Below, piece by piece: positions 1,978-20,260 of a stretch of 64,000 bases of DNA. The DNA is taken from NCBI GenBank assembly GCA_034932685.1, contig JAYFOM010000018.1, positions 15,011 through 79,010 of the forward strand, written 5' to 3'. The translations under genes and the position numbers were made by a program. Below the pieces are notes generated by a model. It ran no database searches. It saw only the letters and a program-made list of their open reading frames with translations, and had not been told where the DNA came from. This DNA is from Erysipelotrichaceae bacterium. Lineage in GTDB: Bacteria; Bacillota_I; Bacilli_A; Erysipelotrichales; Erysipelotrichaceae. Numbering within the stretch: position 1 is the stretch's first letter; each line of letters starts with the position of its first letter.

Positions 1978-2017
1978 TTGTACGTATAAAGCTGTATAAA
2001 TCTAATAGTGACCTTCT

Positions 2018-2741
2018 TTACATGAAATTGAACGAAAATGTAAAGAACTCAGCGAAAACTGATCCAACAATCATAGGAATTTTCTTAGCTTGCTCAGAAA
2101 AAACTAAATAAACTGGATCTCCTAAATAATCGACATTCTTTGTCGGTCCATTAAATGGCATTCCAATTCCTTTATGATCAATATGGACATTAAGATATGC
2201 ATCAGCTATTCCCTGTTGTTTAAATGTATGAATCTTCTCAATTTCATTATTATTAATGCCTAACACCTCAAGCATTCTTTCCACATTTTTCGACATATCT
2301 CTACCAGCATCAGTAAGTTGATGACCCATTGTACCACTCATGATCATTACTTTCGAGTATAGTCCTGTTGATGCTGGCATATTCATTTCTGAAACAGCTT
2401 TTGCTCCACCACCATAAAACCAAACTATTGCTGGTATTTTTACATTGTTATCAATGTTATCTGTCCAAACATTTATATTGCGACAATCTTCTGATTACGG
2501 CCAAAAACGATGTGAGTTCTTCAGGTTATTACCAATCCTATCTGATAAAAAAGGATATGATATAACCATAGCTAACAGTTTCCTTTACCCCTTCCCGTTT
2601 TTTAATCGCAACAGGTGGCATAAATCTACTAGCTTGTGCGTAATCGATACCATAAAAATGATAAACACCACTATCTTTGAACCCTCTAATCAATCCTTTT
2701 GATGTTTTACTGTTGTACTTCTTCGGCGTTTGAAATCCATC
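2018..2741 (-). pseudogene. type-B carboxylesterase remnant (frameshifted, internal stop, internally deleted, 3' truncated)
   Basis: My minus-strand translation reads MDFKRRRSTTVKHQKD*, then in another frame GLIRGFKDSGVYHFYGIDYAQASRFMPP...NSHRFWP*SEDCRNINVWTDNIDNNVKIPAIVWFYGGGAKAVSEMNMPAST. This is colinear with the intact esterases at 6973-10047 but lacks about 100 codons, including the GQSGGG serine. It ends shortly after the AEF motif. Confidence 0.8.
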
Positions 2742-2783
2742 TTAATTTCTACTTATCGTAGAGTAATTTATTTAAATAATTTC

Positions 2784-3968
2784 TTAAAGTTCGACTTTTG
2801 CGATAATTTTGGATTTCTTATGATCAAAATAGTAATAGACTACTAATCCTACTATTAGCATTGCTGAGTATAATAAAAACATTGATTCATAATCGGTTTT
2901 CATGACCACATAGCTTGCAAAGATCGGACCAAGTGCATTACCTATATCTTGACCAATCAAACAAGTTGATATTGCAACACCATTACGTTTTATACCTAAT
3001 TTTTTAATCGATTCAGCTTGAATTGCCGGTGTACCATTGCCTTGTCCAACAGCTTTAAATACAGCTGCGATCAAAACTGGAAAAAGCGTATATGATTTCG
3101 CAAGCAATGCCATACCCAAAGCATAGAAAAGAAAAGCGGGATATAAAATAACCCTAATTCCTTTAAGATCTTGAATACGACCAGCAAACGGTTTCATTAC
3201 CAACATCGCTACTGAGTAAACCGTGAAAAACAATGCAATATTTGCTATGCCTCTTACAACTCCAAAATTTACTAGATAGTAAGATATGATGCCATTGCCA
3301 AAAGAGAACAATGCGATCATTACAACATACAGTAACAATTCTTTCGCAAAGAAATTATTGAAACTGATGCTCACTTTACCATTCTCATCTTTTTCACTTA
3401 CATATTTGTAAGGAACTATTTGAATTATCACCAAACAAACAATACATAAAATTGCTGAACATAGAAAAATTGGTTCAAATCCATACACTGAAGATATCAT
3501 TGTTCCAAGTTGAGGACCAATCATCGTTCCTAAAAGCATGGCAATACCCATATAACTGATACCTTCAGCTATTCTGTTCTTTGGTATGAATGAAGTCGCA
3601 AATGCCATACTAATAGTTCCACTTATAGCAAATGCAATACCATGAATCACTCTTACAAAAATAACCATAACAAAGTTTACTGAAAATGAGTACCCAATCA
3701 TGCAGAGTGCTGTGGCAAGATACGAATAAAACATAAGTTTTTTTCTATTTAGTTTGTCACTCATAGCCCCAGAAAATGGACGAATTACAAGCGCCACCCA
3801 CGAAAGAATACTTGATATAATTCCTGTTACTTCAAATGCTACACCTTTTGATTCTAAAAAAATAGGCATAGAAGGATTTACCATAAAAGATGAGATACCA
3901 TTTAAAGCATTAACGATTAATAATAGAATAAATGACATCGTCCAAAGTTTAATATGTTTGCTTTGCAT
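2784..3968 (-). CDS. MFS transporter
   Basis: About 12 hydrophobic segments and an MFS loop motif (GAMSDKLNRKK). The ATG at 3968 is preceded by aaggagg, so the ORF-track start at 3989 contains the SD. Confidence 0.85.
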   Translation of the reverse strand: MQSKHIKLWTMSFILLLIVNALNGISSFMVNPSMPIFLESKGVAFEVTGIISSILSWVALVIRPFSGAMSDKLNRKKLMFYSYLATALCMIGYSFSVNFVMVIFVRVIHGIAFAISGTISMAFATSFIPKNRIAEGISYMGIAMLLGTMIGPQLGTMISSVYGFEPIFLCSAILCIVCLVIIQIVPYKYVSEKDENGKVSISFNNFFAKELLLYVVMIALFSFGNGIISYYLVNFGVVRGIANIALFFTVYSVAMLVMKPFAGRIQDLKGIRVILYPAFLFYALGMALLAKSYTLFPVLIAAVFKAVGQGNGTPAIQAESIKKLGIKRNGVAISTCLIGQDIGNALGPIFASYVVMKTDYESMFLLYSAMLIVGLVVYYYFDHKKSKIIAKVEL

Positions 3969-4055
3969 TAAACCTAACCTCCTTATCATAAGGGTTTGCT
4001 ACCATATCTAACCCAATAAACTTACTGCATGTTAAATGAGAAGATAATCTTTCGA

Positions 4056-4955
4056 TTAACTTTCTTTTGGAATGACTGGTAACGTTGTTTTCGGTAAACC
4101 CTTAGATTCAGGAACCCAGCTTTTGCCATGTGATCCGTATATTGAAATCATTTCCTTTAACTTTTCCTTGAAGCCTAACTGTGCAGTCTTAAATATGAAA
4201 TATGCTCTATTGCCTTCTAAATCAGCATTTAAAACAGCACTCACTGCAGCCTTGCATAAATCGTTGTTTATATTTACTTTATTTATACCCAAGCTACACA
4301 CTTTTCTTAACACTTCATTATCAGTGCCTGATGATCCATGTAAAACAAGTGGAAAGTTGTTCGTTTGTTTTTTGATTTCGATTAATCTATCGATGTCAAT
4401 TACTGGCGTTGAACCTTTCGGATATGATCCGTGTGCTGTACCAATTGCAACAGCCAAGCAATCAACTCCAGTTTGTACAATATATTCTTTAGCGAATTTT
4501 GGATCAGTTAATGCCGCATCTCTATCATGACTATAGTTTTCAGCATGTCCAACATGGCCTAACTCTGCTTCAACAGAAACGCCTACAGCGTGAGCAAGCT
4601 TAACAACCTCTTTAACATCTCTGATATTATCTTCATTTGAGTATGATGATCTATCGATCATTACTGAAGTAAAACCTGCTCTTATCGCTTTTTGTACTTG
4701 TTCAATGCTTGCGCCATGATCTAAATTTATGGCAATTGGAACATTTGATTGTTCTGCAAGTTTTCTTAATTGATGACCAAAAAAGAATATGTCAACAGTT
4801 GCTCTAAATGCTACATCCAAAATTAATGGTGCTTGCATTTCTTCAGCTGCCTCTATACAAGCCCTTGCTGTTAATTCACTATCAACATTTGGTGCAGCAA
4901 CAGCATAATTATCTACATTTGCTCTATCTAATATCTCTTTCATAGTTACTAACAT
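4056..4955 (-). CDS. class II ketose-bisphosphate aldolase (tagatose/fructose-1,6-bisphosphate aldolase family)
   Basis: N-terminus MLVTMKEILDRANVDNYAVAAPNV plus LDHG, HVG and LVLHGSSG metal/phosphate motifs of the FbaA/GatY/KbaY family. GGAGG sits 9 nt upstream. Confidence 0.85.
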   Translation of the reverse strand: MLVTMKEILDRANVDNYAVAAPNVDSELTARACIEAAEEMQAPLILDVAFRATVDIFFFGHQLRKLAEQSNVPIAINLDHGASIEQVQKAIRAGFTSVMIDRSSYSNEDNIRDVKEVVKLAHAVGVSVEAELGHVGHAENYSHDRDAALTDPKFAKEYIVQTGVDCLAVAIGTAHGSYPKGSTPVIDIDRLIEIKKQTNNFPLVLHGSSGTDNEVLRKVCSLGINKVNINNDLCKAAVSAVLNADLEGNRAYFIFKTAQLGFKEKLKEMISIYGSHGKSWVPESKGLPKTTLPVIPKES

Positions 4956-5911
4956 TATAATTTACCTCCAAATTCTAGTTCATTCAATTTTTTATCAAGC
5001 ATTTCTTTTTCTTCATCTGTTAGTTCCCAATTAAATGATTCACAATTTTCTATTGCATGTGCGGTAGTTGACGCACCTACAAGACACGTTGCCACATAGT
5101 TTTGTTTAATAGACCAATTTAATGCAATCTGTGATAATGGAACTCCTCTTTTCTCAGCAATTTTATCCATTTCACTCAACAATAATTGTATTTTTGAAAA
5201 GAATGGTTCGTTATAATAATCATAAAACCGCCAACGTAAATCATTTGACGGAAAATTTGGTTTTGTCCTATATTTTCCGGTTAAAACTCCAGCTCCCATT
5301 GAGCCATAAGTAAATGAATCTATTCCTTGTTTATTACACCATTGCATCAATTCAACATTCTTTTGATCTACCATACAAAACAAAGGTTGTATTACATCGA
5401 TTTTTGCATACTTCATTGCTTCTTCTACCTGTTCTTTATTGAAATTTGATAACCCAATAAATCTTATTGCACCTTTTTCCTTTAGAATGTTTAATGCTCT
5501 CATTGTTTCTTCAATAGGAGTATTATTATCGGGCCAATGAACAAAGTAAAAATCAATATGGTCTGTTCCTAAATTTCTTAAAGAAGATAACACTTCGCGC
5601 ATAACGTTCGCAAAACTTGTATCTCTTCTATATGGGTTTAAATAATTGCCAGCTAAACCAAATTTAGTTGCTATTAATACTTTGTCTCTATACCCATCTT
5701 GCAAAGCCTCGCCTACTAATTGTTCAGCATAACCATTTCCATATACTGGTGCAGTATCAATTAGATTAACACCATTATCTATCATGGCTCTTATTGCTTT
5801 TATTGATTCTTCACGATTTACATCTCCATAATTCTGTCCACCAATCGCCCATGTTCCACTTGCTAAACATGAAACATCTATGTTTGCATTCTGTAAATGA
5901 GTGTATTTCAC
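4955..5911 (-). CDS. aldo/keto reductase
   Basis: AKR motifs (GTWAIGG, NLIDTAPVYGNGYAE, IATKF, HWPD, IGLSNF). GTG start overlaps the upstream stop (GTGA), with GGAGG upstream. Confidence 0.85.
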   Translation of the reverse strand: MKYTHLQNANIDVSCLASGTWAIGGQNYGDVNREESIKAIRAMIDNGVNLIDTAPVYGNGYAEQLVGEALQDGYRDKVLIATKFGLAGNYLNPYRRDTSFANVMREVLSSLRNLGTDHIDFYFVHWPDNNTPIEETMRALNILKEKGAIRFIGLSNFNKEQVEEAMKYAKIDVIQPLFCMVDQKNVELMQWCNKQGIDSFTYGSMGAGVLTGKYRTKPNFPSNDLRWRFYDYYNEPFFSKIQLLLSEMDKIAEKRGVPLSQIALNWSIKQNYVATCLVGASTTAHAIENCESFNWELTDEEKEMLDKKLNELEFGGKL

Positions 5912-6519
5912 TGTTTTTCCTCCTCTTGATTACCTACTTTACTAAAATAGTACTCTGACTTTTTTATGTCTTTTTTATTTACATACATTGTTGCAACTAG
6001 TGTTAAAAGATTATCTTTATCTTCACCTTTAGCTATTTTCAACATTTCTTCAGCTTCATTTAAATACGCAAAACCTTTTTTTACAAATGTATCGTTTACC
6101 ATCATTACGTATTCTTTTAATTGACTATCCTTGCATTCAAGAACTTTTTCGTATGTTTGATCTTTTTTGATGTTATTATCAGTCGAAACATAATATGAAA
6201 ATGCTTTTGAATATAGGTGAGTTTTTTGCTCATCATTCATATTAATCTTTTCTGCTCTGTTTAACATTTCATTTAAAAGTTTCTCATCTTTGATCAAAAT
6301 AGCTTTATTAATACTTAAAATTATAAAGTTGTAAATTGGAATAAAGAATTTTGTACTTTTCCTGTTCAATAGTTCATCAAATTGTTCTAATTCACCTGCT
6401 AAAAACAAATTCATTAATTCATTTTGTCTTTTTTTCTTCATACTAGATAGAATGATTTCAAAAACTACTGAACAAACAAATATTACTGAAACAATGATCA
6501 AAGCTTTCTTAACATCCAT
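5908..6519 (-). CDS. hypothetical N-terminally membrane-anchored helical-repeat protein
   Basis: One N-terminal TM segment (ALIIVSVIFVCSVVFEIILS), then a K/E-rich all-helical-looking region. Good SD (aaggag). No family recognised. Confidence 0.5.
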   Translation of the reverse strand: MDVKKALIIVSVIFVCSVVFEIILSSMKKKRQNELMNLFLAGELEQFDELLNRKSTKFFIPIYNFIILSINKAILIKDEKLLNEMLNRAEKINMNDEQKTHLYSKAFSYYVSTDNNIKKDQTYEKVLECKDSQLKEYVMMVNDTFVKKGFAYLNEAEEMLKIAKGEDKDNLLTLVATMYVNKKDIKKSEYYFSKVGNQEEEKQ

Positions 6520-6557
6520 ATATTTCTCCTTATATGCCTAAATATATTAGTAATAAT

Positions 6558-6971
6558 TTAATCTAAAAAGTCATCTCCTTTATCTACATTCATCGTATTA
6601 AGATGAACTATACCACTTCTTCCAGTTTCTACTAATGCTTTAAAATCATATGAATCACTTAATCTATTCCCTAATTGTTCAAGCACAATTGATAAGTTCA
6701 TACCTGCAATAATATCTATATCGTTTGACATAAACTGAACACATCTATTGCACGGAGTACCTCCAAATAAATCAGTGAAAACTATTACTCCCTCACCAGT
6801 ATCAATATCCTCGATTAAAGAACTAATCTTTTTATCATAATCTTCGATGATATCATCTTGTTCTAAGCATAAATATCCAAATTGTGGAATATCTACTCCC
6901 ATAAACCATTTTGTAGTTTCAAAAATCCCTTTAGCCATTGGGCCATGGCTTAATAATGCTATACCTTTCAT
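6558..6971 (-). CDS. PTS mannose/sorbose-family EIIA component
   Basis: MKGIALLSHGPMAKG (phospho-His context) and FTDLFGGTP motifs. The ATG at 6971 follows gaggaa and lies 1 nt after the esterase stop. Confidence 0.8.
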   Translation of the reverse strand: MKGIALLSHGPMAKGIFETTKWFMGVDIPQFGYLCLEQDDIIEDYDKKISSLIEDIDTGEGVIVFTDLFGGTPCNRCVQFMSNDIDIIAGMNLSIVLEQLGNRLSDSYDFKALVETGRSGIVHLNTMNVDKGDDFLD

Positions 6972-6972
6972 A

Positions 6973-8502
6973 TTATTCCTCACTCGTACAATGTTTAATA
7001 CTTAATAAGTATTCAATTAACTCTTTATCAAAATTTTCTCTTACTTCGCACTTTTCACTAAAAATCATTGTTTTTATTGAGTAGCTAGAACTTGCTTTCC
7101 ATTCTATATCATCATCTATTTGCGGCTCTCCTGTTTTAGCAAAACTCAATAAACGATCTGCCATCTCATGTTGAATGTGTTCAGCAACTCCTTCACCCAT
7201 ATAGGTAGATGGAACCATTTGAATGTTTTTAAACATAAATGCAATATCAGAAGAATGAAGTGCTGTAGACCCATCATTGATTCTAAAAATAGGATTAAAG
7301 AAATAATTATAAGTTGGTGCACAACCATTATCACATCTGCACTTAATCATGTCACAAGTTGTTTTTCTCATCATTTCAACATCGTATGCTAAAACATCAA
7401 TTAATTTATTATTTGGAAATGTTTTCTCAAATAATTCAACAATTTTTACTGTATGATCTTTGCCAAACTTTTCTTCTATAGCTAGCACCATTTCTTCTTT
7501 AGTCATTGTATTTCTATCATAACATTGCGGAAGATTACTAAATTCGGAGAAATTTGTTCCGATAATTAATGGAGCTTGTTTTGCATGTTCAGTAAATCCA
7601 TTGTGAAATGGTTCTCCAATATAATCTTCTGATTTGCTTGGCCCGAAATATTCAACTCCCAACATTCCTAATTCTTTATAAGCTTGAGCATAATTTTTTG
7701 CTAATACTCTTGGATCAATAGTTTCAATGTCTGTAAAGTTATCATTACTGATTCCTGATTTCATTAGTGTCAATGAAACACATTCTCTCATATCTCTACC
7801 AAAATCCCACATTGAAGGACCTGAAACACCACTCATAATAAGTCCGCGTTTAAATAAGCCTTTACTTGCTGGCATATTCATAATAGAAGCAACTTTTGCT
7901 CCACCACCTGATTGACCAAATAAAGTGACATTATCTTTATCACCACCAAAATGTTCAATGTTTTTATTTATCCATTTTAATGCAGCCAATAAATCCAAGT
8001 TTCCTACATTTTTACTTTTTGCGTATTTTTCATCATACTCAGATAAGTCTAAGTAACCTAGGGCATTTAATCTATGATTTAACGTTACAACTATAACATC
8101 TCCTGTATCACATAAATTATAGCCATCGTATGATTTATGTTCCAAACTTGACCCATAATGGAACCCTCCACCATGAAACCAAACCAAAACAGGTCTTCTT
8201 ACGTCATTATTTATGTTTTTAGTCCATACATTTAAATATTGACAATGTTCACTTGTTGGCCAAAAACGATGAGGGTTTTTTAAGTTATTTCCAATTGTTT
8301 GTTCGCGTAAACTAGGGCATATATATCCATAGCTTGTAGCCTCTTTTAAACCTTCCCATGGTTCAACCTCTTCAGGAGGCATAAATCTTTTAGCATCTGC
8401 ATATTTAATGCCGTAAAAATGATATACATCGTTAAATTTAAAACCTCTTAGTAATCCTTTTTCAGTTCTGGCTATTGTATTTTTCCCATGTTCAAAACTC
8501 AT
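6973..8502 (-). CDS. type-B carboxylesterase (PnbA-like), no signal peptide
   Basis: 509 aa with WFHGGGF oxyanion motif, GQSGGG nucleophile elbow, GTNFSEF acid position and ALHSSDIAF His position. N-terminus MSFEHGKNT is not a leader. Confidence 0.85.
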   Translation of the reverse strand: MSFEHGKNTIARTEKGLLRGFKFNDVYHFYGIKYADAKRFMPPEEVEPWEGLKEATSYGYICPSLREQTIGNNLKNPHRFWPTSEHCQYLNVWTKNINNDVRRPVLVWFHGGGFHYGSSLEHKSYDGYNLCDTGDVIVVTLNHRLNALGYLDLSEYDEKYAKSKNVGNLDLLAALKWINKNIEHFGGDKDNVTLFGQSGGGAKVASIMNMPASKGLFKRGLIMSGVSGPSMWDFGRDMRECVSLTLMKSGISNDNFTDIETIDPRVLAKNYAQAYKELGMLGVEYFGPSKSEDYIGEPFHNGFTEHAKQAPLIIGTNFSEFSNLPQCYDRNTMTKEEMVLAIEEKFGKDHTVKIVELFEKTFPNNKLIDVLAYDVEMMRKTTCDMIKCRCDNGCAPTYNYFFNPIFRINDGSTALHSSDIAFMFKNIQMVPSTYMGEGVAEHIQHEMADRLLSFAKTGEPQIDDDIEWKASSSYSIKTMIFSEKCEVRENFDKELIEYLLSIKHCTSEE

Positions 8503-8514
8503 AAGATCATTCTC

Positions 8515-10047
8515 CTATCCTACTATCAATTTAAAAGTCTTGATTTTCCCTAATTCTTCCATTAGTTCTTTATCAAAATCAGTTTTTTCTTCTGTACTTC
8601 TATCAAATATCATTGTTGGTAAACTATGATCATTTACTGGATGCCAGATTGATCTACCTTCTAATTGAGGAGCATCATTTCTTGCAAAGTTTAATAATCT
8701 TCCTACCATCTCATATTGTAAATCTTGTTCTTTTCCATCTAAGTAAGTTGATGGAACCATATGAATATTATTGAAAATAAAAGCTATATCTGTAGAATGT
8801 GAAGCAGTAAAACCATCATTTAACTTAAATACTGGGGTAAATAAATAGGAGTATGTTTCAGCGCATCCACTTTCAACTCTAGCTTTACAAAACTGATATA
8901 TATCTGGTCTTATACAACAACAATCATAAGTTAAAATGTCAATGATTTTATGACTTGGAAATGCATTAGTGAATAAAGGTATCAATCTACTTGCATTTTC
9001 TTTACCTAATTCGACTTCAACAGCATGCTCCATCTCCTCATCGTTCATTAAGCTTCTTTCATATTTTGTTGGTAAAGACAAAAACTCAGAAAAATTTGTT
9101 CCAACAACCAAAGGTGCTTTTTTTGCATGTTCAGTAAATCCGTATTCGATTGGATTACCTATATAGTCTTCATTTTTTGTTGGAGCAAAGAAAGGAATGC
9201 CTCTTCCTTTTAATTCTTTATAAGTAGAAATATATGTATCTAAAATTAATCTACCATCCATACTTATTAATTCATCAATGTTATCTTTACTTATATTTAA
9301 TTTATCCAATGTGGCTTTAACTAAATATCGTGAATCAGATTTATGATCTGAAAAAGACTTTGTTCCCTCCAATCCACTCATTACAAATCCACGTTTAAAC
9401 AGTCCTTTGCTTTCAGGCATATTCATAACTGAAATAACTTTGATTCCACCACCTGATTGTCCAAATAAAGTAACATTTTCTTTATCGCCACCAAAATGTT
9501 CAATGTTTTTATTTATCCATTTTAATGCCGCCAATAAATCTAAATTACCAACATTCTTACTTCTTTTAAATTTATCACCATAATCACTTAAATCCAAATA
9601 TCCCCAAATGCTGAGTCTATGATTTAGTGTTACAACAACGACATTCCCAGTGTTACATAAACTATATCCATCATAAGTCTCATGTTCTAAAGAAGAACCA
9701 TCAAAAAAGCCTCCACCATGAAACCAAACTAGAACTGGCTTTTTTTCATTATTATTAATATTTTTTGTCCATATATTTAGGTATTGACATTGTTCACTTT
9801 CAGGCCAAAAACGATGTGGATTTTTAACATTTGTTCCTATCCGATTGAATTGTACATTTGGGCAAATATAACCATAATTAGTCGCATCTTTAACACCATC
9901 CCATTGTTCAACTTCTTCAGGTGGCATGAATCTATTTGCATTTGCGTACTTAACTCCATGATAGTGATATATATCGTTGTACTTAAATCCTCTTAATAGT
10001 CCTTTATCGGTTTGGACTATTGTGTGTTTTCCATGTTCAAAACTCAT
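8515..10047 (-). CDS. type-B carboxylesterase paralog, no signal peptide
   Basis: 510 aa, colinear with the 6973-8502 product (roughly 60% identical by eye) with the same catalytic motifs. Confidence 0.85.
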   Translation of the reverse strand: MSFEHGKHTIVQTDKGLLRGFKYNDIYHYHGVKYANANRFMPPEEVEQWDGVKDATNYGYICPNVQFNRIGTNVKNPHRFWPESEQCQYLNIWTKNINNNEKKPVLVWFHGGGFFDGSSLEHETYDGYSLCNTGNVVVVTLNHRLSIWGYLDLSDYGDKFKRSKNVGNLDLLAALKWINKNIEHFGGDKENVTLFGQSGGGIKVISVMNMPESKGLFKRGFVMSGLEGTKSFSDHKSDSRYLVKATLDKLNISKDNIDELISMDGRLILDTYISTYKELKGRGIPFFAPTKNEDYIGNPIEYGFTEHAKKAPLVVGTNFSEFLSLPTKYERSLMNDEEMEHAVEVELGKENASRLIPLFTNAFPSHKIIDILTYDCCCIRPDIYQFCKARVESGCAETYSYLFTPVFKLNDGFTASHSTDIAFIFNNIHMVPSTYLDGKEQDLQYEMVGRLLNFARNDAPQLEGRSIWHPVNDHSLPTMIFDRSTEEKTDFDKELMEELGKIKTFKLIVG

Positions 10048-10048
10048 T

Positions 10049-11305
10049 TCATTTAACCTTAAAAATTTTCTTTACGAAATCCTTTGCACAATAGCGCCAA
10101 ACATTCCATTCATGTTGTCCTTTATATCCAATAAACTCAATATTAAACCCTTTTTCTATATAATTAGATACTTGCTCTTTTGTAAGATCATGTCTTGGAT
10201 CAGCATCTCCACATGCAACGGTAACCACATCCATATATTCATTAAATTTTCGGGCATCCGAAAATAAATCTGATAAATCCATATCTTCTGTTTTTATAGG
10301 GAAACATTCACCTGAAGAAAACATACCACAATTTGCAAATACATCAGCGTGCAATAGACCTAGTCTTCTTGCATGTCCTCCTCCCATTGATAAACCAGCA
10401 GCAGCTCTAAATCTTCTATCTTTTTTAACGCGATATCTTGATTCAATATGCGGAATGCATTCTTTAGCGATGACTTCATCTAATCTTCCCTCTATAGCCG
10501 TCGTTTCTTTATTTGGGATGAAAACATAACCATTGTTTGCTACAACAATCATTTCTTCTGCTTCTTTTCTAGCAATTAAGTTATCTAAAATCATGTCTAT
10601 TTTCCCTGATGCAAACCAGCTAGTTTCATTTTGAGAACCGCCATGTTGAATATACAACACAGGATATGTTTTATCACTTGTTGCATATGATGCGGGAGTA
10701 TAAACCCAACAACATCTAAATCTATTAGTCGTATTAGAAAAATATATTTCTCTTGTAAGTGAACCATGAGGCACATTATGCAATTGTGTATCTGCATCAT
10801 CTGGTATATCAACTATATTTCTAATACCATCATCATCATGAACATATGGGCTTTGTAAATTTATAGATGTTTGCCCATCGACAACATAAAAAATAGAATG
10901 ATAACCAGGTCCTGGATTTATTGTTTTTCTCCAATATCCATCCTCGTTTAAACTCATATCATCTATTACATAATCCTTACTATAAAATTTTGGATCTTTT
11001 CTATATTCTGGTGAAGAGTTTAAATAATTGTGTAAGCGATATTTCACTTGAACAAGTTTTGCATTTGGTGCGAAGTATTCTAAAGTCACAGTTTTATCTT
11101 CATTATAATTAACACCATCCACCAAATTAAATGGAATATTATCTCCTCCATAATGAATCATTCTCATATATTTAGTAGGTTTCAGTTTTTGAAACATACC
11201 TGTACCCTTATTTAATTCTTCATTGTATTTTGTTACTGATTCATTTTTTGGATAAACTGGATCAAAACTTAATAGATGCATATTTTGTGCTTGATTTGCT
11301 TTCAT
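10049..11305 (-). CDS. esterase-D/Fes-type (PF00756-like) esterase with N-terminal beta-sandwich (E-set/CBM48-like) domain, no signal peptide
   Basis: YPVLYIQHGGSQNETSW and AGLSMGGGHA nucleophile elbow. The ~150-aa N-terminal region resembles those preceding feruloyl/acetyl-xylan or enterochelin-type esterases. Confidence 0.7.
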   Translation of the reverse strand: MKANQAQNMHLLSFDPVYPKNESVTKYNEELNKGTGMFQKLKPTKYMRMIHYGGDNIPFNLVDGVNYNEDKTVTLEYFAPNAKLVQVKYRLHNYLNSSPEYRKDPKFYSKDYVIDDMSLNEDGYWRKTINPGPGYHSIFYVVDGQTSINLQSPYVHDDDGIRNIVDIPDDADTQLHNVPHGSLTREIYFSNTTNRFRCCWVYTPASYATSDKTYPVLYIQHGGSQNETSWFASGKIDMILDNLIARKEAEEMIVVANNGYVFIPNKETTAIEGRLDEVIAKECIPHIESRYRVKKDRRFRAAAGLSMGGGHARRLGLLHADVFANCGMFSSGECFPIKTEDMDLSDLFSDARKFNEYMDVVTVACGDADPRHDLTKEQVSNYIEKGFNIEFIGYKGQHEWNVWRYCAKDFVKKIFKVK

Positions 11306-11308
11306 AGA

Positions 11309-11975
11309 TTATATTACCTTTCTTGTTTTATATTGATTATGAGTAAAACGTAAGACTAAACTCACTATTAGTATCATTGCATAAATCAAGAACATTGACT
11401 CATATCCAATAACACCAACCATTGAACTAGCAAATATTTGACCTACCGCAATCAACACTGAAAATAGTGAATAAAATTTTGCTAAAATTACTACTTTCAC
11501 GGTATATAGAAGAAAAGCAGGATATATAATTAGCGTAATTCCCTTTGTATCTTGAATTTTCCCTATAAATGGTTTCATAATCATCAATGTGAGTGAATAT
11601 ATTGTAAAACTACTAAATATTTACTATTTTTCTTGCCTCTGCAAAATCCAAAAGATAATAAGATATACTACTATTATCTAGTGTGGATATTGCATTCAAT
11701 ACTACATACATAATTAAACTAATTAATATAAAGCAACAAAAACATATAAATTCTGATATGAATAACACGTATTGAAATCCTATATTTTCATAAATTAATC
11801 CAACTTAATAAACTTACGATAATGCATGTATATTCAAATTCTACTCCTCAAACAACTAGAAATTTTGCCATTATTGGGGTAGAAATATAAAGAGCTAATC
11901 CATTTATTACATTAATACATATTATTGCAACAACTCTCTTTGTCCAAAGTTTATTTACTTTTTTATAAATACCCC
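11309..11975 (-). pseudogene. decayed MFS transporter paralog
   Basis: The 92-aa ORF (MKPFIGKIQDTKGITLIIYPAFLLY...GYESMFLIYAMILIV) matches the C-terminal part of the 2784-3968 MFS with a gap. My translation upstream gives KVNKLWTKRVVAIICINVINGLALYISTPIMAKFLVV*GVEFEYTCIIVSLLSWINL*, matching the MFS N-terminus but with in-frame stops and large deletions. Confidence 0.75.
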
Positions 11976-12050
11976 TATTTTTTCTATAAACCAATAAATA
12001 TGATTGAAACAGCTATAAAAGCTATTTCAATCATATATTTAAAAAATTAA

Positions 12051-12878
12051 TTATAAAATACCAAGGAAGCCTAAAACAAATGCTAATCCCATAATTAAGA
12101 AGATTAAATTATTAACTTTCATTCCTTTTTTCAATAAACTGTAGCAGAAGAATGTAATACCAATAGGCAAAATACCTTGCATAATTTGATCAAAATATGA
12201 TTGAACTAAGATCGGTTCTCCACCTGGTATAGTTAAGGTAATTGCTAAAGATGACCTAACTGTAGTTACGATCATAAATCCAACCATAGTCATACCTACA
12301 ATTCCTGCTGCTTTTGTTAGAATTGAAACAAATCCTGACTCATAAGCCTCTTTTAAGAATGTTTCACCCAATGTATATCCCCAATATGTCATTAGATAAC
12401 GGCATACTACATTTGGCACGTTATATAAAACAAAGAATAAGATAGGTCCCATAATTGAACCATTAGCTGCTAAAGAAATACCAACAGATGCAGAAATAGT
12501 TCTTACAATACCCCAGAATAATGCATCACCGATACCTGACAATGGACCCATTAATGAAGTTTTAATTGCAGGAATTGCACTTGAATCATAGTTTCCATAA
12601 TTTGCAGCATTTTCTTTTTCCATAGATGCTGCTAAACCCATAGCAAATGTACCAACAGCTTGGGTAATATTATATGGAGTCATATGACGTTGCATAGCTT
12701 CTGTTCTTTTTTCTTTTTCTGGATAATAACGTTCTAAAGCAGGACAAACTGAAAAAGTAAATCCAGGAGCTTGTCTATATGCTGGCATAGGACAAGCAAA
12801 TACCATAAATGATCTCCAGAAAATGCTATTTAGCATTTTTTTATCTTCTTTGGATACGTTCTTGAACATACTACTCAT
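12051..12878 (-). CDS. PTS mannose/fructose/sorbose-family EIID component
   Basis: IID signature region (FWRSF..., PGFTFSVCPALERYY, MQRHMTPYNI). Overlaps the IIC stop. Confidence 0.85.
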   Translation of the reverse strand: MSSMFKNVSKEDKKMLNSIFWRSFMVFACPMPAYRQAPGFTFSVCPALERYYPEKEKRTEAMQRHMTPYNITQAVGTFAMGLAASMEKENAANYGNYDSSAIPAIKTSLMGPLSGIGDALFWGIVRTISASVGISLAANGSIMGPILFFVLYNVPNVVCRYLMTYWGYTLGETFLKEAYESGFVSILTKAAGIVGMTMVGFMIVTTVRSSLAITLTIPGGEPILVQSYFDQIMQGILPIGITFFCYSLLKKGMKVNNLIFLIMGLAFVLGFLGIL

Positions 12879-13677
12879 TTAAGAAATCCTCCTCTTCAGA
12901 AATATTAAGCGATCCACCCTTTTTAACAAGAGTCTTTAAATCTAAAATTTGTTTTTCACTGAATGCAATTGTTACAGCAATAACTACAGCAATTATAGCA
13001 ACAACGATTGCTGGTAAACTGAAGTATTTAGATAAAATAAATCCAATAAATAGGAATCCTACATTATCTTTATTAACTAACATCTTCATTAGTACAGCCA
13101 TACCGACTGCGCCTAACATATTAGCTATAGTACCTAAGCCTTTCATAACACCTGCAGGAAGGTTTGTCATAAATGTTTGAACTACATTTGCTCCTAAATA
13201 TACTAAAGCAAAGATAATTAATGTTCTGACAAAATATTGGAAGAACCATCCTACAAGAATTAATGGTGTCATACCTTTAGTATCTGCATTTTCGCATACT
13301 TTAATGTACCAAGGTTGGAAGAAACTTCCTAATACTAAGAAGAATGGGAATAATGAGTTAAACACTAAACCTACTGGAATTGCTAGCGCAATAGCTTCTG
13401 CTTGTTGTAACCCCGAAGTAATTGCAAATGTAACAGCCATAACTGTAGCTGATACTGGTTCTGCTGCGGTAGCTCCACCAATATTTACAACCCCCATATA
13501 CACAGCTTCTAATATACCACCTAAAATAATACCAGTGGTAATGTCACCAAATAATGCACCTGTAATTGTAGCAACGATAATTGGTCTTTCTAACATACAT
13601 TGACCAAATAACCAGTTAAACGAATAACTGATAAAATATGCCAATGAAGCTAGAAGTGCAACAGTTAAACTAGACAT
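12871..13677 (-). CDS. PTS mannose/fructose/sorbose-family EIIC component
   Basis: 268-aa polytopic membrane protein between IIB and IID with IIC-like glycine-rich helices. SD aaaggagg. Confidence 0.85.
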   Translation of the reverse strand: MSSLTVALLASLAYFISYSFNWLFGQCMLERPIIVATITGALFGDITTGIILGGILEAVYMGVVNIGGATAAEPVSATVMAVTFAITSGLQQAEAIALAIPVGLVFNSLFPFFLVLGSFFQPWYIKVCENADTKGMTPLILVGWFFQYFVRTLIIFALVYLGANVVQTFMTNLPAGVMKGLGTIANMLGAVGMAVLMKMLVNKDNVGFLFIGFILSKYFSLPAIVVAIIAVVIAVTIAFSEKQILDLKTLVKKGGSLNISEEEDFLNE

Positions 13678-13695
13678 AAATTATTTTCCTCCTTT

Positions 13696-14208
13696 TTATC
13701 TATTTTTTTCTACTGCATTAATTAAGTCTGATACTTTACTTTTTGTACTTGACGGAATCAATAAACTGAAGAATTTGTCTTTAAGAATCACAGTCAACTC
13801 TTTTGCCGCAATCATTTCTGGTTCAGACAATGTAACACGTCCACCAGGCAATTTAACTTTTGGACCTGTATCTCCCGTAAAGCTTCCTGTATTTGCAAGA
13901 TTCACTTCACAAATATTATCTTTACAAGCTTTGACTAGATATAGAGCATCTCTCACTGTTTTTGTTAAACCAAAGATCCTCATATCTTTTGATTTAGGAT
14001 TGTTGATTAATTCAACTGCGCCATCCAAATCTTTTATAATTGTTTTAATTCCTGCTGGAGTTGCCATTTTTAAAGTCATCTGAACTGTTTCATTTGTAGC
14101 TGCATCATTATTTGCAACAATGATACGTGATGTATTTAACTCTTTTGACCACACCATTGCAACTTGACCATGAATTAACCTGTCATCGATTCTAATTTGG
14201 ACAATCAT
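13696..14208 (-). CDS. PTS mannose/sorbose-family EIIB component
   Basis: MIVQIRIDDRLIHGQV phospho-His motif diagnostic of sorbose-type IIB. Confidence 0.85.
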   Translation of the reverse strand: MIVQIRIDDRLIHGQVAMVWSKELNTSRIIVANNDAATNETVQMTLKMATPAGIKTIIKDLDGAVELINNPKSKDMRIFGLTKTVRDALYLVKACKDNICEVNLANTGSFTGDTGPKVKLPGGRVTLSEPEMIAAKELTVILKDKFFSLLIPSSTKSKVSDLINAVEKNR

Positions 14209-14242
14209 ATTTTCTCCTTTCTATTGACTATTTACTCTCTAG

Positions 14243-15100
14243 TTATACTAGAGTACTGTCCTTTGATTCTAATCTTTGTAAACTATCTTTAAATCCTTTT
14301 GTAAATCCAAAATATTTTAGAATGTTTTGAATCTCGATTTCCCAAAATCGCCATTCATGAGCATAACCTTCCATCTGATGGAATACAGCATCTAACCCAA
14401 CTGATTCTGCATATTCTTTAAAATGCAACCAATTTGAATATACACCATCAGCAGTTCCGCAACAGAAATAGAATTTTGGTGGATTTTTCATATTAGCTAC
14501 CTTTGGTACTAAGTCCCATGTGTTCTCATAACTATTGAAAAATAAATCTGGTCCTCCTGCCATTTCTACTGTCATCATCTCTCTAGCATAAAATGTGTTA
14601 TCAGGACCGTCATTCATTATTTTTCTTATGTCTGATGGGACTCCACTCATACATGCGACTCCAGCAAATTTTTCTGGCCAGTAAAATCCATATTTGCTTG
14701 TTCCTCTTGCTCCCATAGATAGACCACATATGAAGTTGTCTTCTCTTTTTTCACTTGCTGGAAACCATCCATAAATCAAGGGCATTAGTTCTTCAGTTAA
14801 ATAATCGAACATTCTGAACTCAGGATTAACTTTCGTCCAATTTGAATAATTAGAATTCAATGCGGATGGCATAACGACAATCAAATCATTTTCAGTTGCG
14901 TATAATTCAATATTTGTTCTACGCAAATAATCGTTATAACAACCAAGTGTACCATGAAGTAACCATAGAACAGGATATTTTCTCTTTGATCCATAATATT
15001 CTTTAGCATCATCTTTTTGCTTAATTGAGGGCAGAATCACCGCAATATCTGTATTGGTATTCAAACACCAACTCCTAAAATTTAAATGTAATAAGGCCAT
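14243..15100 (-). CDS. esterase-D-type (PF00756-like) alpha/beta hydrolase, no signal peptide
   Basis: YPVLWLLHGTLG and CGLSMGARG nucleophile elbow, with C-terminal HEW. 285 aa, similar in architecture to tributyrin/acetyl esterases. Confidence 0.7.
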   Translation of the reverse strand: MALLHLNFRSWCLNTNTDIAVILPSIKQKDDAKEYYGSKRKYPVLWLLHGTLGCYNDYLRRTNIELYATENDLIVVMPSALNSNYSNWTKVNPEFRMFDYLTEELMPLIYGWFPASEKREDNFICGLSMGARGTSKYGFYWPEKFAGVACMSGVPSDIRKIMNDGPDNTFYAREMMTVEMAGGPDLFFNSYENTWDLVPKVANMKNPPKFYFCCGTADGVYSNWLHFKEYAESVGLDAVFHQMEGYAHEWRFWEIEIQNILKYFGFTKGFKDSLQRLESKDSTLV

Positions 15101-15111
15101 ATTTTTCTCCT

Positions 15112-16029
15112 TTACTTTATTTTGTTTACTAAAACTTTTTCATACATTTTTTTAACATCAATCATATTCGGAAATCCTATTGTTTGTGCTTTTGCTCTTC
15201 CAGCGGCTTCACCATATTTTAGAAATTCAACTGTTTCAAAATTCTGTGACATTGCGGCTATCGTATAAGCCAACATTGAATCACCACATCCTACTGTGTT
15301 TACAACCTCAACGATGGGTCCATTAACTTTTCTTTTTTCATATTTATTAGCGAAATAAGATCCTTCCTTACCCATCGAAACTAAGACATTTTCAACTCCA
15401 ACTTCGATTAATCGATCAACATATTCCGCGTAATTTGCAGCATCTATGTTTACATCAAATATGCTTGCAAGTTCATCTAAGTTAGGTTTGATCAGAAATG
15501 GTTTTGTTGATTGATAATTCTTTAAAGTTAAATTTGGTATATCAGTTATGAGCTTTGCACCTACAGATGATACATAATTTCCGATGCTTTCAATCAAATC
15601 AGCTGTCATTCCTTTACAAAAACTACCTGATATTACAACATAATCGTCTTTGTTTAGCTTATCCAACTTATTTAGTAAATCATCTTGTTGCTTATCTGTA
15701 ACCTCTGGTCCAATAGCATTAATTGCTGTTTCTTGATCATTACTGATTTTGATATTGATCCGGTTTTCTTGATCAATCTGAACTTTTAGTAGTTCTATTT
15801 CCTTAATCTTTGCGATCTCATTTTCAATATACTGGCCGATTACACCACCAAGGAACATTATTGCTTTAGTTTTAATACCAATACTTGCAAGAACCATCGA
15901 GATATTAATCCCTTTGCCACCCGCCCGAATTTCTGTTGTGTTTGCTCTAACTATTGTACCCTCAATTACCTTTTGTTCTAAAAAAACGAAATAGTCGATT
16001 GAAGGATTAAGTGTTATTGTGTATATCAT
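15112..16029 (-). CDS. PfkB-family ketose-phosphate kinase (1-phosphofructokinase / tagatose-6-phosphate kinase type)
   Basis: MIYTITLNPSIDY N-terminus, GGKGIN and VNTVGCGDSM motifs. Start moved to the ATG at 16029, although its SD is weak. Confidence 0.85.
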   Translation of the reverse strand: MIYTITLNPSIDYFVFLEQKVIEGTIVRANTTEIRAGGKGINISMVLASIGIKTKAIMFLGGVIGQYIENEIAKIKEIELLKVQIDQENRINIKISNDQETAINAIGPEVTDKQQDDLLNKLDKLNKDDYVVISGSFCKGMTADLIESIGNYVSSVGAKLITDIPNLTLKNYQSTKPFLIKPNLDELASIFDVNIDAANYAEYVDRLIEVGVENVLVSMGKEGSYFANKYEKRKVNGPIVEVVNTVGCGDSMLAYTIAAMSQNFETVEFLKYGEAAGRAKAQTIGFPNMIDVKKMYEKVLVNKIK

Positions 16030-16139
16030 ATTGAGGAGATTAATATCCTTTCTGGTCTTTTTATAACATACTGAAATCGCTACCACAATAAGCTAAAGCA
16101 ACATACCTTAACCACTCGAATTTAATGCTTGATAATGTA

Positions 16140-16213
16140 TTATCAAATGAGTGAACGCGCATTTTTAGTGCGCGTTCTTATCAAATGAACATGTTTAAAT
16201 TTGAAATGAGTGA
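16140..16213. promoter_or_regulatory. candidate operator cluster in the DeoR / operon divergent control region
   Basis: Perfect 11-nt direct repeat TTATCAAATGA at 16140-16150 and 16178-16188 flanks a 9-bp GC-rich inverted repeat (gaacgcgca 16153-16161 / tgcgcgttc 16169-16177). AAATGAGTGA is repeated at 16145-16154 and 16204-16213. Confidence 0.4.
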
Positions 16214-16326
16214 TTTTTCTATTTTATTCAAATATAAACATAATAAAAGTGAATTTTTGATTATCAACGATCATTATTCAATTTACAATCTTTTTTTGTT
16301 ATACTATCAATAACTGAGGTTAGATA

Positions 16327-17088
16327 ATGAAAAAAGATAGAATAGCTTCAATATACTCATTGTGCCAGCAATCGTCTCAAGTTCTTGTTGAAGATTTAGT
16401 AAATGTACTAAAGGTATCTCCTGCAACAATAAGACGATATTTGCAAGAAATGGAAGATATGAAATTAATCAATCGTTTCTATGGTGGTGCAGTAATTAAT
16501 AATGATCAAGTTAATGAACCAACTATGCATGCAAAACATCTTGTTAACATGGGTAAAAAGAACATCATCGCAAAGTATGCGGCATCATTGATAAAGGACA
16601 ATAATATCGTTTATATTGATGCTGGAACAACAACTGAAGAAATGATCGATTACATTTATGCTAAAAACATCCTTGTTGTAACACAGGCCTTGTCAATTAT
16701 GGATAAGTTGTATGAAAGACAGATCCGATGTTATACACTTGGTGGATATATAAAATTCTCTACTAATATTATCATCGATAATGATACGATCGAAAAAATG
16801 GCAAAGATGAACTTTGATATATCATTCATTGGCTGTAATGGCATAAACCCAATTTTTGGATTCTCTACTACTAATGAAATAGAAGCAATGTTGAAAAAGC
16901 TCATAATATCAAAATCAAAACAATCCTACATACTTGCTGATAGTAAGAAATTCAATCAAATTAGTAACATTAAGTTTGCTGATCCAAAAGATGCAATTAT
17001 CGTAACTGATGAAATTATAGATAATTTAGATTATACCCCTTATAACGAAGTTATTTTTGTCAATCGACCAAATTCAAAACAACCTTAA
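16327..17088 (+). CDS. DeoR-family transcriptional regulator
   Basis: N-terminal wHTH (VEDLVNVLKVSPATIRRYLQEME) plus a C-terminal DeoR sugar-phosphate sensor domain. Divergent from the PTS/esterase operon. Confidence 0.85.
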   Translation: MKKDRIASIYSLCQQSSQVLVEDLVNVLKVSPATIRRYLQEMEDMKLINRFYGGAVINNDQVNEPTMHAKHLVNMGKKNIIAKYAASLIKDNNIVYIDAGTTTEEMIDYIYAKNILVVTQALSIMDKLYERQIRCYTLGGYIKFSTNIIIDNDTIEKMAKMNFDISFIGCNGINPIFGFSTTNEIEAMLKKLIISKSKQSYILADSKKFNQISNIKFADPKDAIIVTDEIIDNLDYTPYNEVIFVNRPNSKQP

Positions 17089-17093
17089 AGATA

Positions 17094-17127
17094 TAAAAAA
17101 TCATCCAACGATGATTTCTTTTTTTAT
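17094..17127. terminator. rho-independent terminator between convergent genes
   Basis: aaaaaatcatc / caac / gatgattt followed by cttttttt. Confidence 0.6.
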
Positions 17128-17139
17128 GTTTTCTATAAC

Positions 17140-18282
17140 TTATTCTACTGATATTTCTTTTTTTGCCAAACGTTTTTCAGTTGACTTTTTAATATAGAAA
17201 TAGATAACCGCAAATACTGGCACGCCAAAAAACATACCTAATACCCCATAAAAGCCACCACCAACAATGATCGCAAACATGATCCATAATGTTGGTAGTC
17301 CAAGGCTATCCCCAAGGATAGCTGGTCCTATGATGTTACCATCTATTTGTTGAATCAATAACACAAACAAAACGAACCACACTACAAGGATTGGATCAAC
17401 AATAAACAAAATGAACACACCCGGTACAGCACCAATAAATGGTCCAAAAACCGGAATCATATTAGTAACACCAATGATCACACTTAAAAGCAAAGCAAAC
17501 GGCATTCTTAAGATCATTAAACCGATGTAAGTTAATAGTCCAATAATTAGCGAATCAAGAGCTTTACCGATAATGAAACGATTGAAAACATTAGCACTAA
17601 CCCTAGAAAAATCAATTAACTTCTCGGCATTATCTTTTGAGAAAAAAGCATAGCTAATCTTAGTAAACTGACGCGCGAATCTTTCTTTATCAATCATGAT
17701 ATAAAGTGCAATAGCCAAACCAATTATTACCTTTAAGATAGTAGAACCAAATCTTATTGAGAAATTTAGTATCTCAGGTAAATATTGTGAAGCGATATTA
17801 ATAACACGTGAGAATAACTCATCGCTGTATCCAGCAAGTAAATCTGCCAAAGTTTGATCAATATTCAACTGCATTAATAATTGTTCAGATATTTTCTCAG
17901 CTGTATTTAAGTAATTCGGTAAAAGATTCATTAGCTTGATGACACTTTCTGTAAGCTGCGGTAATGAAATTACCACAAAGGCTGTTAATACAAAAATAGC
18001 TAATGTCATTGCGATAAGTGAAGAAATCACCCGACTTGTACGCTTTTTCAATTTAAGCTTAATCAGAATCTTGTTTTCAATAAAGGTACAAATTGGACTT
18101 AAAACAAATGCGATGAAAAACCCAAAGATAAATGAAACTGTTATCGATGTTGCTTTTGAAAACCAAACACCTAAAACATGCATGTTATCGACAATAAGGA
18201 AAAAACTAATCAGTATGATTCCTGACAGGGTCAAGGCAATAATATTTTGTTTGGTACCTTCCTCTATCTTAATCTTGCGCAT
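17140..18282 (-). CDS. AI-2E family transporter (PerM/UPF0118)
   Basis: 380-aa polytopic protein with the C-terminal PVFGPFIGAVPG...QQIDGNIIGP motif typical of this family. Confidence 0.8.
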   Translation of the reverse strand: MRKIKIEEGTKQNIIALTLSGIILISFFLIVDNMHVLGVWFSKATSITVSFIFGFFIAFVLSPICTFIENKILIKLKLKKRTSRVISSLIAMTLAIFVLTAFVVISLPQLTESVIKLMNLLPNYLNTAEKISEQLLMQLNIDQTLADLLAGYSDELFSRVINIASQYLPEILNFSIRFGSTILKVIIGLAIALYIMIDKERFARQFTKISYAFFSKDNAEKLIDFSRVSANVFNRFIIGKALDSLIIGLLTYIGLMILRMPFALLLSVIIGVTNMIPVFGPFIGAVPGVFILFIVDPILVVWFVLFVLLIQQIDGNIIGPAILGDSLGLPTLWIMFAIIVGGGFYGVLGMFFGVPVFAVIYFYIKKSTEKRLAKKEISVE

Positions 18283-18406
18283 ACTACCTCATTTCTCTTT
18301 TTATTATAACAGAAATCCCTTGTTTTGACTTATATTAATAAAATCTTAACATATAGTAGTAACTAATGATTATCTGTTATAATGTTACTTGTTTTGGAGA
18401 TTAAAT

Positions 18407-19777: not shown

Positions 19778-19789
19778 GAGGTTATCAAT

Positions 19790-20257: not shown

Positions 20258-20260
20258 CCA

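Follow-up and report, generated by a model that had tools for sequence, protein, structure and literature searches.

A conserved gene cluster of gut Erysipelotrichales joins a mannose-family phosphotransferase system to intracellular esterases

A 64,000-nucleotide stretch of an Erysipelotrichaceae metagenome-assembled genome (assembly GCA_034932685.1, contig JAYFOM010000018.1; hereafter the window) carries a gene cluster that joins a sugar import-and-cleavage pathway, built around a mannose-family phosphotransferase system (Man-PTS), to intracellular esterases. The combination is conserved, with one to four esterases per cluster, and we put at about even the chance that it forms one catabolic system for small ester-decorated (acylated) sugars, which would most likely be ketohexoses. 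The reading as one system is favored because the linkage is clade-specific, the gene content is kept under shuffled gene order, the genes are under purifying selection and the active sites are intact. It is further supported because the kinase of the cluster is nearest to fructose-1-phosphate (F1P) kinases and one esterase, of 418 amino acids (aa), is nearest to CE1 enzymes that act on sugar esters. The interest of the cluster comes mainly from its conservation, the selection acting on it, its spread in gut Erysipelotrichales and its presence in a culturable species.

Gene content and linkage across genomes

Family assignments were made by Pfam and NCBIfam profile searches on the translations of the open reading frames (ORFs) of the window. 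A first-pass annotation of this DNA had described the cluster as tightly packed on the minus strand, and the ORF list and profile searches recovered all the genes it named, at the same positions. From the PfkB kinase gene (15112-16029) onward, the minus strand encodes a 285-aa serine esterase (14243-15100; PF00756), the mannose-family subunits IIB (13696-14208; PF03830), IIC (12871-13677; PF03609) and IID (12051-12878; PF03613), a 418-aa CE1-type esterase with an N-terminal CBM48-like domain (10049-11305; PF00756), the type-B carboxylesterases 1 (8515-10047; PF00135, 2.1e-77) and 2 (6973-8502; PF00135, 1.6e-74), and the subunit IIA (6558-6971; PF03610), which thus lies apart from IIBCD. These are followed by a 203-aa membrane-anchored, all-helical protein (5908-6519), an AKR11-like aldo/keto reductase (AKR; 4955-5911; PF00248) whose start overlaps the preceding gene, a class II ketose-bisphosphate aldolase (4056-4955; PF01116) and an intact MFS transporter of the drug/sugar-efflux type (2784-3989; PF07690). 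The PfkB ORF extends to 16086; the family alignment begins at the ATG at 16029, the start given originally. According to the ORF coordinates, neighboring genes overlap by 1-8 nt or are separated by up to 66 nt, with one exception, a stretch of 745 nt between IID and the 418-aa esterase. It contains a decayed MFS gene with broken family matches, in line with the earlier description of such a copy as the only larger break. No second copy of the cluster was found elsewhere in the window.

All 13 genes are under purifying selection: the ratio of nonsynonymous to synonymous substitution rates (dN/dS) is 0.01-0.28 against the related species L094 (GCA_034932905.1), which served as the reference for dN/dS and for synonymous divergence (dS).

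The first-pass annotation had proposed a single system and had named conservation of the gene neighborhood as a check. This check came out in its favor, as the esterase genes of relatives are consistently linked to, and interleaved with, PTS, kinase and aldolase genes. Carboxylesterase relatives of 53-80% identity are encoded alongside Man-PTS genes in all loci of sufficient sequence length (L002, L005-L007, L008, L009, L089, L092-L094, L100-L103, and L124-L125), whereas among the matches listed at 45% identity or less, Man-PTS genes lie within 10 kb in none of 78 loci (L010-L064 and L066-L088). The scan of a genome collection with the carboxylesterase alignment, which returned at least 600 stretches mostly at 36-45% identity and in which close relatives are under-sampled, was used as a negative control. 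In a metagenome scan, relatives of the 285-aa esterase with at least 68% identity were encoded directly upstream of IIB-IIC-IID in every locus with downstream sequence, while those with 53% or less never were. Identities of IIC homologues show a gap, dropping from 51% directly to 45%. The contexts examined at 56% or more were linked to an esterase in six of six cases (P0128, P0131, P0138, P0147, P0153, and P0155), and the sole context examined at 43% was not; outside the clade, the nearest PTS relatives are at most 45% identical. With the same linkage present in many further genomes, chance is a very poor explanation of the pattern. Because many loci represent a single species or close relatives of one another, the number of loci exaggerates that of independent events, for which the count of gene orders is the better measure.

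The gene content is kept over at least seven gene orders, in hosts with a local G+C content of 31-55%. In L002, the genes of a Mga-like regulator, the esterase, IIBCD, an MFS transporter, the CE1 enzyme, two carboxylesterases, IIA, an unassigned protein, the AKR, the aldolase, PfkB, and a MATE pump follow one another; L005 and L092 share this order without the AKR, and L103 and L125 have one carboxylesterase. The order in L008 is IIABCD, AKR, aldolase, MATE, carboxylesterase, an unassigned gene, and MFS, and L009 has in addition a Cof-type HAD phosphatase and an MFS transporter of the LacY-like kind. L089 and L100-L102 read DeoR, PfkB, esterase, IIBCD, AKR, aldolase, MFS, IIA, CE1, and carboxylesterase. 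A minimal variant (L110, L126, and L127), with the same flanking genes as L100, consists of DeoR, PfkB, the 285-aa esterase, IIBCD, MFS, IIA, and the helical protein. In L002 and L008, MATE genes are part of the cluster or adjoin it, and in L104 they are found nearby.

Because the minimal variant keeps only these genes plus that of DeoR, the core of the cluster is made up of PTS IIABCD, the 285-aa esterase, PfkB, the MFS transporter and the helical protein, and the CE1 enzyme, carboxylesterases, aldolase, AKR, MATE pump and HAD phosphatase are accessory. The set of four esterases emphasized in the first-pass annotation is thus present in the window but does not define the cluster, as only the 285-aa esterase is universal and the number ranges from one (L110/L126) to four. 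Likewise, the PTS and the kinase hold as the center of the system that had been outlined, while the aldolase and AKR included in it are dispensable in the minimal variant. The gaps on the two sides of the 285-aa esterase gene are 11 nt to the kinase gene and 34 nt to IIB in the window, and this position is kept in every variant, including the minimal one.

These arrangements bear on a different explanation, according to which the cluster holds two independent modules: a plain ketohexose route of the fructose, tagatose or sorbose type, made up of PTS, kinase and aldolase, and a set of esterases with MFS or MATE pumps that detoxifies non-sugar plant or dietary esters, for example hydroxycinnamate or xenobiotic esters. 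The two would be kept together only as both respond to a plant-rich diet, and the cluster would then be an ordinary sugar operon next to esterase genes. In agreement with this, the CE1-carboxylesterase and AKR-aldolase pairs are lost together in L110/L126 with the PTS retained, distant carboxylesterase and PF00756 relatives occur with MFS genes and without a PTS in L010, L121, and L122 (L038 likewise has no PTS), the MFS transporter is efflux-pump-like, and a hairpin behind IID could split the cluster into two transcription units. However, the 285-aa esterase never leaves its place between kinase and IIB. In most variants, the gene of the indispensable PTS subunit IIA lies among those of the esterases, and the linkage to the PTS is absolute inside the esterase clades and absent outside them. 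We therefore regard independent modules as rather unlikely.

By record and contig names, with taxon labels as given in the records, the clusters come from ruminant gut, Hadza-labeled human gut and other gut metagenomes, and from [Clostridium] innocuum (L125, GCA_024592235.1). The latter belongs to the OMM12 mouse model community (10.1101/2025.10.22.683057). Its being a culturable human gut species makes the idea testable, and the cluster provides a defined genetic target for studying the diet of these bacteria in vivo and adds a distinct PTS subfamily. The literature on C. innocuum held nothing relevant past general PTS expression in vivo.

Esterases were also seen in other settings. In L091 (7949-18547; GCA_045539425.1), an MFS gene, a YdjC gene, a carboxylesterase gene (46% identical), a GH1 gene, a PF00756 esterase gene and a second YdjC gene lie together with those of a PRD regulator, Lac-type IIA, IIB and IIC, and a third YdjC; GH1 denotes a phospho-beta-glucosidase and the YdjC proteins are deacetylases. 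The pairing of esterases with a PTS thus recurs with another PTS family, and the gene content of the locus suggests acylated beta-glucosides as a further class of substrate. L091 is a parallel system, in favor of the view that these esterases are generally paired with conjugates imported by a PTS. In L008, the region beside the cluster (14520-21527) encodes a ribose-type ABC transporter, the kinase subunits DhaK and DhaL, a second class II aldolase and two PF00756 esterases, another aldolase-esterase pairing in which the importer is not a PTS. On an uncultured Oscillospiraceae contig (L038, 10001-16636), a carboxylesterase gene precedes six tandem PF00756 esterase genes, whose products are 30-47% identical to the 285-aa esterase.

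Esterases, sugar enzymes and a putative route

All four esterases of the window are predicted from their sequences to be catalytically intact and cytoplasmic, in agreement with the first-pass annotation on both points. In the carboxylesterases, which match PF00135 over their full length and are 59% identical to each other, S198, E321, and H417 are invariant in 16 of 16 aligned clade members, and the GLSMG, CG..D, and HEW motifs of both PF00756 esterases are invariant among orthologues. Over the N-terminal 45 residues, the four esterases peak at a 12-residue hydropathy of 0.02-1.10, compared with 3.18 for the 203-aa membrane-anchored protein, and no signal peptide is predicted in any of the four. 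The carboxylesterases, identified as type B from the outset, have 5a2g as their best structure (4e-112) and also resemble pnbA; a comparison with plasmid sequences returned distant rhizobial and actinobacterial pnbA-like genes only.

The other two enzymes, initially described as esterase-D/Fes-type, can be assigned more narrowly. The 285-aa esterase is closest to the EstA/FphF carboxylesterases (4rgy, 3.8e-38, followed by 6vh9 and 2uz0). By family membership, the 418-aa enzyme qualifies as a predicted CBM48-CE1 feruloyl-esterase-like protein: its closest structures are the CBM48-CE1 feruloyl esterases 7b5v (6.6e-47), 6mou, and 6rzo, it matches NF041944 (1.5e-35), and a CE1 catalytic domain with Ser-Asp-His is clear. 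The CBM48 domain is sub-threshold in Pfam (0.003-0.045), and the alignment with 7b5v and 6mou covers the C-terminal CBM48 part. With the CBM48-CE1 feruloyl esterases of Bacteroidota xylan loci the enzyme shares the domain layout, the sequence over residues 116-416 and the Ser/Asp/His motifs; unlike them, it has no signal peptide, carries an extra N-terminus of about 115 residues and belongs to a Gram-positive PTS operon. A siderophore esterase (Fes-type) role was considered and rejected, as enterochelin esterase is matched marginally (8.1e-5) and iron-uptake genes are absent. A biosynthetic acyltransferase role for the PF00756 proteins was likewise rejected in view of the catabolic context.

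The 285-aa esterase also shows a weak NCBIfam match to S-formylglutathione hydrolase (6.8e-9), and the AKR resembles methylglyoxal-reducing AKRs (YdjG and YhdN). Both would fit a function in stress protection, with esterase D-type thioesterases and a methylglyoxal reductase acting against methylglyoxal or aldehydes that arise from rapid use of PTS sugars instead of processing the substrate. This explanation is very improbable in our estimate, given that the 285-aa esterase is far nearer to the EstA/FphF carboxylesterases, that the CE1 enzyme and the type-B carboxylesterases have no known role in thioester detoxification, and that the AKR is missing from several variants.

The PTS consists of four separate proteins, each above its Pfam gathering score. 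Reading the translations by eye, we found LLSHG in IIA and RIDDRLIHGQV in IIB, which we take to be the motifs with the phosphorylatable histidines of these subunits; the metal ligands of the aldolase, the GCGD motif of PfkB and the tetrad of the AKR are visible in the same way. IIA is 137 aa long in L094. The scores for all named PTS equivalogs (Man, Lev, Sor, Aga, and Gam) are far below cut-off, as with AgaW (138.7 against 300) and AgaF (64.2 against 130). PfkB is predicted to belong to the 1-phosphofructokinase/hexose-kinase subfamily and to be closest to F1P kinases, since it scores above the cut-off of the subfamily model TIGR03168 (261.7 against 216.4 bits) and has the F1P kinases 2abq and 2jg5 as best structures; the score for the FruK equivalog TIGR03828 is below cut-off (262.4 against 292 bits). 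The aldolase matches PF01116 (5.3e-82) and barely reaches TIGR00167 (216.6 against 215.6 bits), the equivalogs specific for fructose bisphosphate (FBP) or tagatose bisphosphate all being under cut-off. Its structure matches include FBA, AgaY, and YdjI (1e-44), and it is nearer to FBP aldolases than to YdjI.

The matches to Ydj proteins raise the question of the Escherichia coli ydj cluster, which reportedly, from work of the Raushel laboratory, handles higher keto-uronic acids. The same five families are adjacent there (YdjF, DeoR; YdjG, AKR; YdjH, PfkB; YdjI, aldolase; YdjE/K, MFS), so the non-esterase genes parallel ydjE-L, and YdjG is the best NCBIfam model for the AKR, whose closest entries in the PDB are 3n2t, 1pz1, and 1pyf. 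The esterases might accordingly open a lactone or methyl ester of a keto-sugar acid that is then degraded by a ydj-like pathway. However, the AKR reaches only 181.7 bits against a YdjG cut-off of 550, the aldolase and the kinase are nearest to FBP aldolases and F1P kinases, respectively, and the sequence scores do not support orthology. The ydj cluster has no PTS and no esterases but does have zinc dehydrogenases (YdjJ/L), for which the Pfam and NCBIfam searches found no gene here. Up to four types of esterase would be excessive for one lactone, and the CBM48-CE1 enzyme indicates acyl esters on sugars. We thus consider a lactone or methyl ester improbable as the substrate.

For the reading as one system for acylated sugars, we infer the following order of steps. 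The Man-family PTS would import the acylated sugar and phosphorylate one primary hydroxyl, probably O-1. The 285-aa esterase, encoded beside IIB, would strip the acyl group in the cytoplasm, and the CE1 feruloyl-esterase-like enzyme and one or two type-B carboxylesterases would broaden the range of removable acyl groups. The F1P-kinase-like PfkB would then phosphorylate the freed second primary hydroxyl to yield a ketose 1,6-bisphosphate, and the class II aldolase of the cluster, or a housekeeping one where it is absent, would cleave this product to triose phosphates. The AKR would remove an aldehyde side product, and the MFS transporter, plus the MATE pump where present, would export the released acid. 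Expression would be governed by a DeoR repressor in the window and by the Mga-like regulator in other variants. The strict triad of esterase, kinase and PTS suggests this division of labor, in which the PTS would phosphorylate one hydroxyl, the esterase would free the other and the kinase would finish the bisphosphate. The minimal variant without an aldolase suggests that at least some products are ordinary fructose 1,6-bisphosphate, which would enter glycolysis as hexose bisphosphate. The efflux-like MFS transporter and the recurring MATE pumps fit an export of the released acid.

The membrane-anchored helical protein could serve as a scaffold that keeps the soluble enzymes at the permease. 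It had been singled out as an orphan, and indeed no Pfam or NCBIfam family matched it. An AlphaFold2 model (predicted local distance difference test score of 87) has a membrane helix at the N-terminus and, behind it, a repeat domain made up entirely of helices, for which a fold search gave no match at E <= 0.001, only weak similarity to generic TPR-like helical repeats. At the 50% cluster level, 348 relatives were found (142 at E <= 1e-10), each about 200 residues long; the protein is encoded in most cluster variants and has a dN/dS of 0.28 against L094. It belongs to an undescribed family.

Several observations weigh against a system for acylated ketohexoses. To our knowledge, acylated free ketohexoses are not abundant gut nutrients. 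As neither the kinase nor the aldolase reaches the cut-off of any named enzyme model, they do not identify the sugar; naming it from the nearest PTS relatives was tried and failed because their contexts are uninformative: the PTS genes on an Enterococcus faecium megaplasmid (44% identical) lie beside the gene of a SIS-domain protein with two GntR regulator genes upstream, and those of Pediococcus (43% identical) have no adjoining catabolic genes. No glycoside hydrolase or other enzyme that would reveal the substrate was found in the cluster by the Pfam and NCBIfam searches. Type-B carboxylesterases act mostly on non-carbohydrate esters, and their closest structure here, 5a2g, is deposited merely as 'carboxylic ester hydrolase'. 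The MFS family varies among the variants, being LacY-like in L008 and L009. A test for distal co-regulation found no second copy, within three mismatches in the window, of a palindrome located in front of PfkB, and the hairpin behind IID may set the distal esterase genes apart from those of the permease.

A more specific version of the system, possible but doubtful, would have a PTS subfamily dedicated to acylated ketohexoses and an obligatory esterase step: the PTS would phosphorylate the sole free primary hydroxyl, and the 285-aa esterase would unmask the other before the 1,6-bisphosphate could form. The helical proteins would then constitute a new docking family, MFS and MATE transporters would export a possibly toxic acid, and acyl-sugars of plant or microbial origin would become accessible to gut Erysipelotrichales, C. 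innocuum among them. If a system for acylated sugars is indeed present, PTS-dependent catabolism would cover an uncharted class of substrates, sugars still bearing acyl groups, and a number of abundant genes of gut Bacillota that are annotated as 'carboxylesterase family protein' would be given a role.

The cluster resembles several known systems in part. The first-pass annotation had remarked that no characterized pathway of this kind was known; likewise, we found no description of a PTS-plus-esterase system in the open-access literature, which is absence of evidence only. With the fructose (fruR-fruK-fruA) and D-tagatose (PTS, 1-phosphate kinase, and GatY-type aldolase) operons of Bacillota it shares a DeoR-family regulator, a kinase of the 1-phosphofructokinase/hexose-kinase subfamily, a class II ketose-bisphosphate aldolase and the logic of converting a ketose phosphate via the 1,6-bisphosphate to trioses. 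Unlike in these operons, one to four esterases, an MFS transporter and the helical protein are built in, and kinase and aldolase score below the named cut-offs; in contrast to the fructose operon, the PTS belongs to the mannose family and has four separate subunits, and the adjacency of FruA, FruK and FruR is not found. The N-acetylgalactosamine/galactosamine (aga) pathway also combines a Man-family PTS, a DeoR-type regulator and a class II aldolase: AgaF and AgaW are the best NCBIfam models for IIA and IIC, AgaR is the second-best model for the regulator, and the aldolase is related to AgaY. However, the cluster contains neither an AgaA deacetylase nor an AgaS deaminase/isomerase, serine esterases rather than an amidohydrolase would remove the substituent, and the aga equivalog scores are far below cut-off.

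In the mannan and xylan loci of Roseburia intestinalis, acetylated oligosaccharides are imported and de-esterified in the cytoplasm. Uptake of an ester-decorated sugar, intracellular removal of the ester and several esterase specificities per locus would be common to these loci and the cluster described here. The Roseburia loci rely on ABC importers, glycoside hydrolases or phosphorylases and CE2, CE17, and CE1 enzymes, whereas the cluster has a PTS, no glycosidase, esterases of the EstA-like, CBM48-CE1-like and type-B kinds, and a kinase/aldolase route.

Regulation, pseudogenes and neighboring genes

The DeoR-family regulator gene (16327-17088, plus strand; PF08220 and PF00455) is divergent from the operon, as reported in the first-pass annotation, and regulators of 71-75% identity are encoded at the same position in L089, L100-L102, and L126. 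Between it and PfkB lies the palindrome ACGCGCA-N7-TGCGCGT (16155-16175), which may be a DeoR operator or a leader hairpin in the 5' untranslated region. L089, L100, and L110 have a palindrome in the corresponding position, the two halves of which have changed in concert (ATGAGCA-N7-TGCTCGT in L100/L110); the single match in the window is by chance alone not significant. In two loci of the minimal variant, a group II intron reverse transcriptase/maturase is encoded between DeoR and PfkB (L110, 7146-8495; L127, 5811-7097), and the DeoR gene of these intron-bearing loci is truncated (191-212 aa compared with 253).

Directly 3' of IID, a stem-loop of 17 bp is located on the minus strand (11998-12036), which may be an internal attenuator, a partial terminator or an mRNA-stability element. 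Stem-loops occur at the same position with different sequences in L094, L002 (~7500-7535), L005 (~7507-7550), L103 (~9459-9496), L125 (~11647-11685), and L126, and in L103 and L125 (C. innocuum) a T-run follows, immediately ahead of the ribosome-binding site that serves the following gene. Short gaps and overlaps favor one transcript from PfkB to the MFS gene, as had been assumed; the hairpin and the 745-nt stretch argue for at least partial termination. Since the hairpin is conserved, co-transcription of the entire cluster is unproven, although co-transcription of the distal genes, including IIA, is plausible. A search of window positions 1-22000 against Rfam found no RNA family, and no riboswitch or antiterminator RNA was recognized. 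A hairpin with a T-run (1946-1974), identified by a hairpin search, closes the cluster.

The decayed MFS gene (~11309-11975, minus strand) is represented by several broken tblastn pieces that are nearest to MFS transporters of the L002/L005 type. It is likewise decayed at the same place in L094 (4226-5215), and the pseudogene is therefore old, its decay preceding the split of the two species while the rest of the cluster was maintained. A decayed third type-B carboxylesterase gene (2000-2740, minus strand) contains in-frame stops and frameshifts and breaks off after about residue 335. A deletion that fuses the HGGG and GGG motifs has removed residues ~114-198 and with them the nucleophile serine, and the remaining sequence is closest to the L089/L009-type enzyme (56-60%) and not to the two intact copies.

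The intact genes also differ in their affinities. Products of the block from the 285-aa esterase to the AKR show 85-97% protein identity to L094 (dS 0.17-0.62) and 72-88% to L002/L005. In PfkB, the aldolase and the intact MFS transporter, protein identity to L094 is 65-75% and dS is saturated (2.6 or more); these three are closest to the L089/L009 type, the MFS transporter being 65-67% identical to those of L089/L100, and DeoR, whose gene lies beyond the L094 sequence analyzed, is closest to the L089 type (75%). This divergence from L094 suggests recombination between two cluster types, and the cluster of the window looks like a mosaic in which two types merged and redundant copies then decayed.

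Upstream of the regulator gene, the window (17140-20257) encodes an AI-2E family transporter, a MATE efflux transporter that is possibly associated with the cluster (18389-19777, plus strand; PF01554) and a small membrane protein with a weak match to DUF986. The AI-2E transporter and the DUF986-like protein do not recur beside the cluster in other genomes; MATE pumps do.

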